Source of the DNA: an uncultured Gammaproteobacteria bacterium
Lineage (GTDB): Bacteria > Patescibacteriota > Patescibacteriia > Magasanikbacterales > GWA2-37-8
Length of the DNA: 64,000 nucleotides
Assembly (NCBI GenBank): GCA_964536725.1
Contig: CAZHYJ010000003.1
Span: 39,065-103,064 of the forward strand
Reading direction: 5' to 3'
Shown here: positions 41,315-44,068 of the stretch, one piece after another
How positions within the stretch are numbered: the first letter of the stretch is position 1
Layout: every line of letters begins with the position of its first letter
Translations under genes and position numbers: made by a program
The notes under the pieces: model-generated
Told to the model about the DNA's origin: nothing
The model's input: only the letters and a program-made list of their open reading frames with translations
The model's database searches: none

Positions 41315-41833
41315 TTACTCGGGATTTTTTTGTGTTTGAATTTGAGTGGTGAGTTGTCGTATGTATTCGTATCCTCCGACCAAAACTGTGGTGTAAAAAA
41401 TGTCGGCCATTAATTGGTTGCGAAAGAAGGGGAGGGCGGCGAAATAGCTGGTGAATAATCCGGTTAGGTTTGCCGGATACATTGTGCCAAATGCCCATAC
41501 TGCCCAGTTGGTGACAAGAAAGAATATTGTCGAACCAACGACTGTGCCGGTGGCGATTTTTTTCCAACCCTTTTCTTGGGTGGTGTAACCGATTACGGCC
41601 ATTAAAGTGAAGGATAAATAGACTGAGAGCATGATGGGGAGACCATAGAAGCCAATAAACAGGTCGCTGACGAGCATGGCGATGAGTGGAATGGTTAGGG
41701 CGTATTTATTTGGTAAATATCGGCCAGCAAAAAACGCAACTGCTCCGATTGCCGTAAAATTTGGTAGATGAGGTGCGAAACGGGTAGCCAGACCAAGAAT
41801 TATTAGTAATATTGCTGGTAGATATTTTTTCAT
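41315..41833 (-). CDS. ECF-transporter S-component-like small membrane protein
   Basis: 172 aa with about 5-6 TM helices; resembles vitamin-specific S components; identification tentative. Confidence 0.4.
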   Translation of the reverse strand: MKKYLPAILLIILGLATRFAPHLPNFTAIGAVAFFAGRYLPNKYALTIPLIAMLVSDLFIGFYGLPIMLSVYLSFTLMAVIGYTTQEKGWKKIATGTVVGSTIFFLVTNWAVWAFGTMYPANLTGLFTSYFAALPFFRNQLMADIFYTTVLVGGYEYIRQLTTQIQTQKNPE

Positions 41834-43514
41834 ATTGTTTTTTGTTATTCAATATTTTTAATTTGATTGGTATATGTTTTTTTTGAATATTTATGGTAGC
41901 GGTATTGATTGCAATTGTTGTTGTGGGGGTATTGAGCAAAGGCGGTTCAGTTGTTTTTGGTCCAATTATTTCTATGGTCGATGTAGTAGTTGTGGTGGTG
42001 GTGGTAATTGTAATAGCAATTGTGGTGGTTGTAAAGGTCGTTGTGGGTGTTATCGTGGGTGGGGTATAGCCGGAACTACTGCCATAAGTGAAGGTTGCTC
42101 CTTGAGAAAAATTTTGCACCTTTTCTGATAAAATAATGGGCCAAGATTTTCCTGCCAGGGCAGGGACAGCATGTTTCATTGCAAACCAATCGGTTGTACC
42201 CGGAGACCAAATTGATTCATAATATCCATTGGTATTATTATCTGTTTTAAGTTGATTAATCAACGGTGACCAGGGGTTTGTACCACTCGCAGTAATCCAG
42301 TCGTTCTGTCCTTCGTTTAGAGCGTTGATTCCCATTATCACCCAACTTGTAGTCATTATTTCAGATGTACCATAACCCCAACCACCGTCATTTTGTTGGG
42401 TTGATTTTAAATAACTCTTGGCTTTGGCAAAAATCTCACTGTTTATTTCTGCTCCTTTATTTTGTGCATACTTTAAAGCGTTAATTGAAGCACCAGTAAT
42501 ATCAGCGCTTTGATAACCTGCCCAGGTAAACGATCCGTCAGCAGTTTGGTCGGAAACGATAGTATTGATGGTGGAAATCACCAATGGGTTTTGTGCACTT
42601 TCTCCGGTTGCTAGTAGTGCTAACAGGGCAAATACATCATCGTTGGTACCGCTTAAACCATACAGATTGTCTTTGTGACAGATTGTAGACATTTTTTCTT
42701 TCAGACCCTTTATAGAGGAATCGTTTGCGCCAACACCTGCTGCGATTAAAGCTAAAATGTGACGTGGATAGGTAGCGCAGGAATTGATATCTGACGGATC
42801 ATCAAGGTTGTACTTTTTTTCATAATCCAAAAGCGAAGTACCAGTGTTTTTTATTTCTTCAGCATATTGATTGTTCGCGCCAAAAGACATGATTGCCCAA
42901 TCGGTAATTGTGCCATCCACAATTTTTCCGTCTGGTGATTGTTGGGTTTTAAAATAGTTTAAAATTTTGTTTACAACATCAGATATCTGTGTTTGGGAAA
43001 TTGTTTGTGGTGGAGGAGTATTTGTCTGAGTGGTTTCACTTTGTCCGCCAGTTGCGGTTTCGGTAAGTGGGGTGGTACTACTACCAGTAGTAGTACTTGT
43101 ACTTGTGCTTGTACTAATATTTAATTCGTCGGTTGTTGTTGTTGTTGTTGTTGTTGTTGTTGTTGGGTCTGTTATCATTATCAAGCTTGTAGTTGTTGTC
43201 AGACTGGTGGTTGAGCTTGAGTCGGTATCTATCACAAAACTCAGGTCGATAGTCGTAGTGGTGGTGTTGTCGTTAGTTGAAGTATTGGTATCAGTAAGGA
43301 TGAGATTATCCGAAATCTCTTCACCTTCTTCTGTTGTTACAGTAATATTTTCTACTACAATGTTTTCGGTATCTCCTTCTAGAGCAAAACCGTAGGTGGG
43401 TGTTGCGGTTAATAGTCCGAAAACAAAAACCAAGGAGTAGATGTAAAATTTGTTTTTTAAATTTACTGTTTTCATATTTGAGATGAATGAGAGAAATGAA
43501 AAATGCTTTTTCAT
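41706..43514 (-). CDS. secreted protein with poly-Thr linkers and a prenyltransferase/squalene-cyclase-like alpha/alpha-toroid repeat domain
   Basis: Signal peptide (start taken at MKKHF); Thr-rich low-complexity runs; repeats with DGSF/DGGW/ADGS motifs spaced as in alpha/alpha-toroid repeat proteins; C-terminal tail low complexity; the 3' end overlaps the next gene in another frame. Confidence 0.5.
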   Translation of the reverse strand: MKKHFSFLSFISNMKTVNLKNKFYIYSLVFVFGLLTATPTYGFALEGDTENIVVENITVTTEEGEEISDNLILTDTNTSTNDNTTTTTIDLSFVIDTDSSSTTSLTTTTSLIMITDPTTTTTTTTTTTDELNISTSTSTSTTTGSSTTPLTETATGGQSETTQTNTPPPQTISQTQISDVVNKILNYFKTQQSPDGKIVDGTITDWAIMSFGANNQYAEEIKNTGTSLLDYEKKYNLDDPSDINSCATYPRHILALIAAGVGANDSSIKGLKEKMSTICHKDNLYGLSGTNDDVFALLALLATGESAQNPLVISTINTIVSDQTADGSFTWAGYQSADITGASINALKYAQNKGAEINSEIFAKAKSYLKSTQQNDGGWGYGTSEIMTTSWVIMGINALNEGQNDWITASGTNPWSPLINQLKTDNNTNGYYESIWSPGTTDWFAMKHAVPALAGKSWPIILSEKVQNFSQGATFTYGSSSGYTPPTITPTTTFTTTTIAITITTTTTTTTSTIEIIGPKTTEPPLLNTPTTTIAINTATINIQKKHIPIKLKILNNKKQYEKISTSNITNNSWSGYPFRTSSTKFYGNRSSCVFCWPIFTK

Positions 43515-43540
43515 TTCCGAGTGAATGAGAATATGTCGCT

Positions 43541-44068
43541 TTAGCGAATGTATTTCCATTCTATTATATCCCCCTGAATTAGTTTGTAATTTGAAATACC
43601 AATTTGAGCAGTTTGGCCGTTGATGTAATAGATCCAATATTTTCCGTTGCCTGGGTCGTTTTTTATACCGTTGATCTCATCAACGAAAAACCCAAGTGAG
43701 GAGTATTCTTTGCCAGAGAACATGAAGGGTTGTTCAGAGCGAGCGGTTAGTTGGCGCATGGCTTCGAGCAGTGTTGTGTCTGGCTGGAATTTCAAGGTAT
43801 ATGTGCGGTCAGAAGTTTTTAGAGTGGCGGTCAGTTGTTCTGGGGCAGATTCAGTAGTTACGGTAGTAGGGGTGTAATTTGCTTTGATTGTCGAGCTTTG
43901 AAGCGGTGGGGGCAAATTTACCTGCTCAGAGCTTGTGTGAGGTGTTTTAGGGGGTGATGCCGGGGTTTTTGTGTGGTCGGGTATGAGGAGATAGGCGATG
44001 CTTGTGAAGGTGACAAATATCAAGAGGATAAAAAGGCGAATTAGTATTGGGGGGATTGGTTTTTGCAT
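43541..44068 (-). CDS. DUF4430-like secreted/membrane-anchored protein (transcobalamin beta-domain-like)
   Basis: N-terminal TM/signal; C-terminal GKYWIYYINGQTAQIGISNYKLIQGDIIEWKYI matches the DUF4430 pattern (yW.y.vNg....G.....l.dGD.i.w.Y). Confidence 0.5.
   Translation of the reverse strand: MQKPIPPILIRLFILLIFVTFTSIAYLLIPDHTKTPASPPKTPHTSSEQVNLPPPLQSSTIKANYTPTTVTTESAPEQLTATLKTSDRTYTLKFQPDTTLLEAMRQLTARSEQPFMFSGKEYSSLGFFVDEINGIKNDPGNGKYWIYYINGQTAQIGISNYKLIQGDIIEWKYIR

Follow-up and report, generated by a model that had tools for sequence, protein, structure and literature searches.

Bacteria of the candidate phyla radiation have tiny genomes and rely on their neighbours for cofactors, and how they acquire vitamin B12 (cobalamin) is, to our knowledge, largely uncharacterised. 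The question is raised here by three genes that lie in a row on the minus strand of a 64,000-nucleotide stretch of contig CAZHYJ010000003.1 (assembly GCA_964536725.1, contig positions 39,065 to 103,064). We call this whole stretch the window and use its own numbering. Do the three genes form a device for capturing and importing B12? The first encodes a protein of 175 amino acids (aa) with a DUF4430 domain (43541-44068), the second a 602-aa protein with an alpha/alpha toroid (41706-43514), and the third a 172-aa membrane protein of the family DUF6580 (41315-41833). A first-pass annotation, made from the sequence alone, had listed these three open reading frames (ORFs), all of which are present, and had interpreted them as a possible capture-and-import system for B12 or another corrinoid or cofactor. 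Our analysis supports this interpretation by a cobalamin riboswitch with covariation, the homology of DUF4430, the fold of the toroid, domain fusions and a BtuM-like DUF6580 structure. We assign a probability of about 0.78 to the reading that the operon is cobalamin-repressed and serves a Patescibacteria (Magasanikbacteria-like) cell in scavenging and importing B12 or another corrinoid. Sequences labelled Magasanikbacteria are those that the window resembles most.

A cobalamin riboswitch heads the operon

An Rfam scan of the whole window found an adenosylcobalamin (AdoCbl) riboswitch aptamer (RF01482, clan CL00101) on the minus strand at 44116-44272, 48 nucleotides (nt) upstream of the start codon of the DUF4430 gene. 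The match (E 3e-6) spans model positions 1-149 and is thus full-length, and its 50.2 bits compare with a gathering score of 50. A cobalamin riboswitch had been expected upstream of the operon at about 44070-44100; the element is present, but lies farther upstream than assumed. Since the score is marginal when taken alone, the riboswitch was tested in related loci.

These loci were collected by scanning one genome per species with a profile of DUF6580, which gave more than 542 relatives. The best 80 were taken as loci and were complemented by four loci found via toroid homologues (L001-L004), resulting in a set of 84. Almost all of the best 80 stem from Patescibacteria (Magasanik-, Falkow-, Parcu-, Sacchari-, Berkel- and Woesebacteria), and a few from Bacteroidota and Ignavibacteria. 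The public records of some Patescibacteria-like loci (L005, L007 and further TPA_asm entries) bear the title 'uncultured Gammaproteobacteria bacterium', which is probably a taxonomic mislabel.

Both L001 and L002 carry a homologous leader element before the same gene trio. At the gathering threshold, Rfam reports no riboswitch in L001-L004, and the L002 element reaches 43.7 bits with RF01482. As this value is below the threshold, a family-specific covariance model, R1, was built from an alignment of 26 leaders from 26 loci (A7). In this alignment, the core GCCGCAACGGU...AGUCCG is invariant, and 14 of the 26 consensus base pairs exhibit compensatory (double) changes. R1 scores the window aptamer with 128.9 bits. 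It was run on 84 sequences (the window and 83 loci) and matches 47 of them, each time ahead of the operon and on the same strand. Of these 47, at least 21 were absent from the alignment used for model building. Further loci contain divergent versions, which are recognized as Cobalamin or AdoCbl-II matches at the Rfam gathering level. Altogether, cobalamin riboswitches head the operon in the window and in at least 50 related loci, which indicates that the operon is under the control of a cobalamin riboswitch. Riboswitches of this kind respond to corrinoids and normally govern B12 uptake or biosynthesis, or B12-independent isozymes. One locus, L035, has two cobalamin-riboswitch matches upstream of its DUF4430 gene (3686-3844 and 3870-4012), which may constitute a tandem arrangement.

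The expression platform (44074-44135, minus strand) has the layout of a transcriptional OFF switch, where the switching itself is inferred from computed alternative folds. A terminator hairpin at 44101-44080, followed by a U-run at 44079-44074, folds with -8.1 kcal/mol (z -2.4). In the alternative antiterminator fold, CCCGAGCAGGA pairs with UUUCUGCUCAGG, the 5' arm of the terminator, at -17.2 kcal/mol (z -2.7). The CCCGAGCAGGA element is located 3' of the aptamer at 44118-44128; it is nearly invariant in the 26 leaders of A7 and is kept even in those that lack the Rfam 3' hairpin. The same near-invariance holds for CCCGAGCAGG. Upstream, the region 44265-44309 is promoter-like by consensus: a scan found TTGACG-17-TATCAT at 44309-44281 with 10 out of 12 consensus matches, and a TACAAT at 44270-44265 keeps the same relative position in related loci. 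In A7, ACAAT is nearly invariant and directly 5' of the P1 stem. At its other end, the operon is closed by a bidirectional terminator-like hairpin (41302-41329) with an 11-pair stem between an A-run and a T-run, which is common to the operon and a convergent gene at 39874-41298.

The gene trio in other genomes

The presence of the three genes was determined by local profile searches of the six-frame translations of the 84 loci. A DUF4430 gene adjoins the DUF6580 gene in 70 of them, and the full trio occurs in 45. The window's order of DUF4430, toroid and DUF6580 prevails among these, and only a few start with the toroid gene (L008, L051, L054, L061, L077). The toroid was not detected in 25 of the 70 loci with DUF4430, and it is dispensable in many lineages. 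The reverse situation, a toroid without DUF4430, was found only at cut contigs and in L004, which carries a different gene, P0017 (L004 2-2529, from a high-GC organism). Here, an S-component-like membrane domain is fused to a toroid, and the gene follows that of an ATP-binding cassette (ABC) ATPase, whose stop overlaps its start. This arrangement links the toroid family directly to transport of the energy-coupling factor (ECF) type. The N-terminal membrane domain of P0017 has sub-threshold Pfam matches to S-components and to DUF6580, and an hhalign comparison of DUF6580 with this domain gave no significant result. In many other toroid relatives, toroid and DUF4430 share one chain, with DUF4430 either N-terminal (P0124, P0142) or C-terminal (P0137, P0089), the latter being the order of transcobalamin. 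The trio is hence conserved as a linked unit whose domains are fused elsewhere.

In diderm lineages, DUF6580 is found in another setting. In L065 (2156-4983) and L081 (1188-5028), from Bacteroidota and Ignavibacteria, it comes after a cobalamin riboswitch and the gene of a TonB-dependent receptor; in L071 (4227-5125) it is located between two riboswitches and beside a TonB-receptor fragment. No ABC genes were found near DUF6580 in these loci. An inner-membrane B12 transporter would be expected in just such a position. Between the receptor and DUF6580, L081 encodes a DUF5074 protein, on which a literature search gave nothing useful.

The regulation and the diderm context bear on the nature of the ligand. 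In Lactobacillus sakei, the ECF-like operon lsa1836-1840, which encodes a transcobalamin beta-like (Lsa1839) and an alpha-like protein (Lsa1840), has been linked to heme uptake (bioRxiv 10.1101/864751). The similarity to our locus lies in the split, secreted beta- and alpha-like proteins beside an S-component, and tetrapyrroles are alike in shape, such that the module described here might import heme or another non-corrin tetrapyrrole. However, the L. sakei operon has its own fused EcfAA' and EcfT, whereas our operon has no A/T genes, an S-component of another family and a cobalamin riboswitch. Since riboswitches of this class control the window operon as well as at least 50 related loci, and since the diderm DUF6580 is accompanied by a BtuB-type TonB receptor under riboswitch control, we consider heme or another non-corrin tetrapyrrole very improbable as the ligand.

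The DUF4430 protein

The product of 43541-44068 matches Pfam DUF4430 (PF14478) with E 2.1e-17. DUF4430 has been described as the C-terminal domain of TCN proteins (PMC4350170). Searches of the PDB with single sequences gave nothing meaningful for any of the three proteins of the trio, and profiles were needed. A profile of 28 DUF4430 homologues (A4), searched against all PDB sequences, returned only three meaningful matches: intrinsic factor (3kq4 and 2pmv, E 0.01) and haptocorrin (4kki, E 0.025). All three align over the C-terminal beta domains. Judged by these profile matches, the DUF4430 domain is a homologue of the beta domain of transcobalamin, intrinsic factor and haptocorrin, as the first-pass annotation had supposed.

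The protein begins with a strongly hydrophobic helix (residues 12-30, Kyte-Doolittle hydropathy 2.4), which is followed by a Pro/Thr/Ser-rich linker. From this composition, the domain is predicted to be tethered to the membrane by an N-terminal transmembrane helix and the linker.

The toroid protein

The middle gene encodes a protein with a signal-peptide-like N-terminus. The core that follows (42105-42992, 296 residues) is flanked by two linkers, one before it (42993-43376) and one behind it (41880-42104), which consist of 38% and 40% Thr, and the protein ends in an aberrant tail. An AlphaFold2 (AF2) model of the core (residues ~167-469, based on a 98-sequence alignment) folds into a single alpha/alpha toroid with a mean predicted local distance difference test score (pLDDT) of 95.9 and a predicted template modelling score (pTM) of 0.93. 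This bears out the earlier description of the middle protein as a secreted toroid with Thr linkers.

At the sequence level, the protein is related to cyclases. Pfam reports a weak match to SQHop_cyclase_C (E 3.3e-7), NCBIfam reports sub-threshold matches to squalene cyclases and to the SCO2321 family, and a profile of 13 toroid sequences matches squalene-hopene cyclase with E 9e-15. The family is large, as an exhaustive search gave 808 cluster representatives at E<=1e-30. A role as an enzyme, i.e., a terpene cyclase or prenyltransferase, was nevertheless rejected. Class II enzymes of this kind have a DxDD motif and act on an intracellular or membrane isoprenoid substrate, whereas the toroid protein is secreted, its motif is degenerate (S-A-D-I-T-G in the equivalent segment, where alignment A1 shows D-V-D-D-T-G for P0017, a distant relative), and its gene is part of a B12-regulated operon.

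A resemblance of the toroid to transcobalamin had been proposed as well, and here the outcome is mixed. In a Foldseek search of the PDB, the model matches bovine transcobalamin (2bb6) at rank 12 with E 2e-5 and a template modelling score (TM) of 0.55, haptocorrin (4kki) at rank 18 and intrinsic factor (3kq4) at rank 40, with E-values of 2e-5 to 3e-4 for the three carriers. The first ranks, however, are taken by single-domain cyclase-like toroids (8paj, E 1.2e-6, TM 0.67), so that the fold is slightly nearer to single-domain terpene cyclases than to transcobalamin. A Pfam scan gave no match of the toroid to Cobalamin_bind (PF01122). Judged by the model alone, transcobalamin does not stand out among the toroids.

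The gene in the window also has irregular ends. The coordinates given in the first-pass annotation hold, but the start is ambiguous, with an ATG at 43514 and another in frame at 43475 in an ORF that is open from a TTG at 43637, and the 3' end reaches into the next gene: the last 128 nt (41706-41833) overlap the DUF6580 gene out of frame and encode a non-hydrophobic tail. Homologous toroid genes stop 1-10 nt before DUF6580 and encode a C-terminal hydrophobic anchor. Loss of the anchor and the overlap are possibly due to a deletion or an assembly error, and the window copy could be impaired.

Does the toroid then take part in B12 binding at all? Alternatively, DUF4430 and DUF6580 alone might form the uptake pair, and the toroid might be no equivalent of the alpha domain, but a co-transcribed accessory surface protein that serves, e.g., as a scaffold or binds the cell wall, glycans or another ligand. 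The 25 loci with a DUF4430-DUF6580 pair and no detected toroid, the terpene-cyclase-like best fold matches, the missing Cobalamin_bind match and the lost anchor in the window are all consistent with such a role. On the other hand, in 45 loci the toroid gene is part of the riboswitch-controlled operon, mostly with the other two genes on either side, a toroid without DUF4430 is a rare exception, and many proteins join both domains in a single chain in either order. The fold matches to the three B12 carriers, even if not the best ones, are significant, and Burroughs et al. arrived at a cooperation model as well (PMC1796856). We therefore regard a toroid without a share in ligand binding as unlikely and prefer the toroid as the partner of DUF4430.

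A further toroid relative, P0015, is encoded on a JGI contig of 2668 bp. Here, an N-terminal B12-binding_2 cap (PF02607) leads into the second toroid half at a shared NDDIFAL segment. The gene is either an assembly chimera or a true fusion with a B12 domain of the intracellular type.

The DUF6580 membrane protein and the ECF question

The third protein has a sole Pfam match, DUF6580 (PF20221), with E 2e-45. Its AF2 model (pLDDT 88.9) is a helical-bundle membrane protein with the six-helix fold of S-components, in line with the S-component-like character that had been assigned to it. In a Foldseek search of the PDB, the B12 transporter BtuM comes first (8c7p and 8ovv, TM 0.70 and 0.67, probability 1.0), in structures that carry cyano- and hydroxocobalamin. 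It is followed by FolT, RibU, ThiT and PanT; the probabilities are at least 0.94 for BtuM, FolT and RibU and 0.57-0.82 for ThiT and PanT.

BtuM is a solitary S-component-like B12 transporter that works without an ECF module and requires Cys80 as cobalt ligand (PMC6072759). BtuM of Thiobacillus denitrificans and DUF6580 are both small six-helix proteins with no ECF module nearby. They differ in that they belong to different Pfam families, share 14-17% sequence identity, and in the ligand: the DUF6580 protein of the window has no cysteine, and within the family a cysteine occurs in at most 5 of 44 sequences in any alignment column, i.e., DUF6580 lacks the cysteine that is essential in BtuM. What is invariant in the family is R18/H22/N25/F26 (R-x-x-P-H-x-x-N-F) in the first extracellular loop (L1). 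Speculatively, this motif is a candidate ligand site with His22 as a possible cobalt ligand.

The family profile of DUF6580 found only one PDB sequence, chain A of 6fnp, with an E-value of 0.34 that is below significance. We take this chain to be CbrT of the B12 transporter ECF-CbrT from Lactobacillus delbrueckii. In an hhalign comparison of DUF6580 with the CbrT fragment, the probability was 60% with E 8.5e-5 over the region P-N-x-x-P...S-[DN]-I-F-[IL]-G-F. The CbrT fragment falls into Pfam ECF_trnsprt (PF12822) and CbrT works together with EcfAA'T, whereas the window protein is in PF20221 only.

Does DUF6580 need an ECF module? An ABC ATPase with Walker A and LSGGQ motifs was not found in the 64-kb window, nor within ~4.5 kb of DUF6580 in 80 loci, save for two unrelated ABC proteins of 576-591 aa. 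No EcfA or EcfT was seen near the operon, where the search was for ATPase motifs and no profile of EcfT was used. As no such gene is nearby, DUF6580 may act alone like BtuM. A genome without EcfA/T had been named as an observation that would speak against import, but it is no valid refutation, since BtuM and solitary BioY work without an ECF module (PMC6072759).

This leads to two competing views of the transporter. In the first, DUF6580 is a third widespread family of S-component-type B12 transporters beside CbrT and BtuM, which uses the His-containing L1 motif instead of a cysteine, needs no ECF module and, in bacteria of the candidate phyla radiation, is fed by a transcobalamin made of two polypeptides. 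We hold this combined view to be close to an even chance. If it is true, the operons would be a living example of the modular state proposed by Burroughs et al. (PMC1796856) and the main entry route of B12 into ultra-small auxotrophs. In the second, DUF6580 is a classical S-component that depends on a shared EcfA/A'/T module encoded elsewhere (group II, like ECF-CbrT). Its S-component fold, the weak similarity to CbrT, the position of the P0017 fusion gene after an ABC ATPase gene and the CbiO/CbiQ genes adjoining SLBB genes in Firmicutes (PMC1796856) speak for this dependence. It is harder to reconcile with the lack of Walker A and LSGGQ ATPases in the window and, apart from the two proteins mentioned, around the 80 DUF6580 genes, with the TonB-receptor context free of ABC genes in Bacteroidota and Ignavibacteria, and with a best fold match, BtuM, that is independent of an ECF module. 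Dependence on a shared module is a serious, if not the favoured, possibility, and both views are compatible with DUF6580 as the membrane carrier of a B12 import system.

A putative route of corrinoid capture and import

For the import of the ligand, which may be complete B12, some other corrinoid or cobinamide, the following course of events may be envisaged. When B12 is scarce, the leader RNA would form the antiterminator and the three genes would be transcribed; when AdoCbl occupies the aptamer, the intrinsic terminator would form instead. Outside the cell, the DUF4430 domain, on its flexible membrane-anchored linker, would capture the corrinoid. The secreted toroid, as the presumed counterpart of the transcobalamin alpha domain, would close over the other face of the ligand, such that one B12 would be enclosed between two separate chains, in the manner of the two transcobalamin domains. 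The ligand would then be passed to DUF6580 and carried across the membrane, either by DUF6580 alone, as in BtuM, or with an ECF module encoded elsewhere. As many lineages have DUF4430 and DUF6580 only, the toroid is best seen as an accessory that enhances affinity or selectivity. A precedent for a two-piece binder may exist in intrinsic factor, whose proteolytic fragments were reportedly seen by Fedosov et al. in 2004 to join again around B12, which the beta fragment binds first.

Several observations weigh against the reading as a B12 import operon. Concerning the RNA, the RF01482 score exceeds the gathering threshold by a small margin. Concerning the proteins, the cysteine ligand of BtuM is missing in DUF6580, and the toroid is slightly nearer to terpene cyclases, has no Cobalamin_bind match, is not detected in 25 of the 70 DUF4430-bearing loci and, in the window, has lost the anchor of its homologues and runs into the next gene. 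Concerning the ligand, the split alpha/beta system of L. sakei was assigned to heme and not to B12. Finally, the annotation of ten large ORFs in the window, in which B12-dependent enzymes were sought, yielded none.

Comparison with known B12 carriers

The eukaryotic carriers transcobalamin, intrinsic factor and haptocorrin likewise consist of an extracellular alpha/alpha toroid and a small beta-grasp (SLBB/DUF4430) domain. They hold both domains in one chain, alpha before beta, whereas the window has two genes, beta before alpha, with the beta part membrane-tethered and Thr-rich stalks around the toroid. Their alpha domain belongs to PF01122, to which our toroid has no sequence match, and they pass the ligand to an endocytic receptor, in place of which we propose a hand-over to a membrane transporter.

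Bacterial proteins of this type have been described before. Burroughs, Balaji, Iyer and Aravind defined in 2007 a transcobalamin-like clade of the SLBB beta-grasp superfamily, whose bacterial members are often fused to alpha/alpha toroids and were predicted to scavenge B12. The authors also described Firmicutes operons in which CbiO/CbiQ genes accompany SLBB proteins, and proposed the modular bacterial state as the source of the animal B12 carriers (PMC1796856). Our operon shares with these proteins the two domains, the secretion signals and the predicted B12 scavenging in organisms without synthesis. The proteins of that study are mostly single-chain fusions from Firmicutes with CbiO/CbiQ (EcfA/T), whereas here we find separate genes, DUF6580 as partner, no adjacent A/T genes and a riboswitch in control.

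The concept of a split-transcobalamin scavenger itself is therefore not without precedent (PMC1796856; bioRxiv 10.1101/864751). What appears to be new is the DUF6580 transporter family, its regulation by B12 and the compact version of the system in the candidate phyla radiation. The searchable literature yielded neither a mention of DUF6580 nor a paper that connects Patescibacteria with cobalamin riboswitches. A compact split-binder operon without ECF genes and the occurrence of DUF6580 with these riboswitches across two envelope types also appear to be undescribed. On regulatory, structural and contextual grounds, the locus gives three poorly annotated families a testable function, and DUF6580 emerges as a family of probable B12 transporters that is found with at least two very different types of cell envelope. 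The operon provides a compact system for studying capture by a split transcobalamin-like binder and the hand-off to a membrane carrier. It is also relevant to the proposal of 2007 that animal B12 carriers have a bacterial origin (PMC1796856).

Further features of the window

The convergent gene downstream of the operon (39874-41298, plus strand, 474 aa) and a plus-strand ORF at 47504-48298 (264 aa) both have no Pfam match. For the 474-aa ORF, the only one of the two on which NCBIfam was run, there was no match in that collection either. The 264-aa ORF lies within the most GC-rich 2-kb stretch of the window (0.455). A LOOT RNA motif (Rfam RF03000), an RNA without known function, is located at 28273-28396 on the plus strand and scores 80.6 bits, compared to a gathering score of 46.4. 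On the minus strand, we find an ORF resembling type IV secretion coupling proteins, with TrwB/TraG domains (50471-53023), and a large serine recombinase (21604-23202), both possibly left behind in a small genome by a mobile element.

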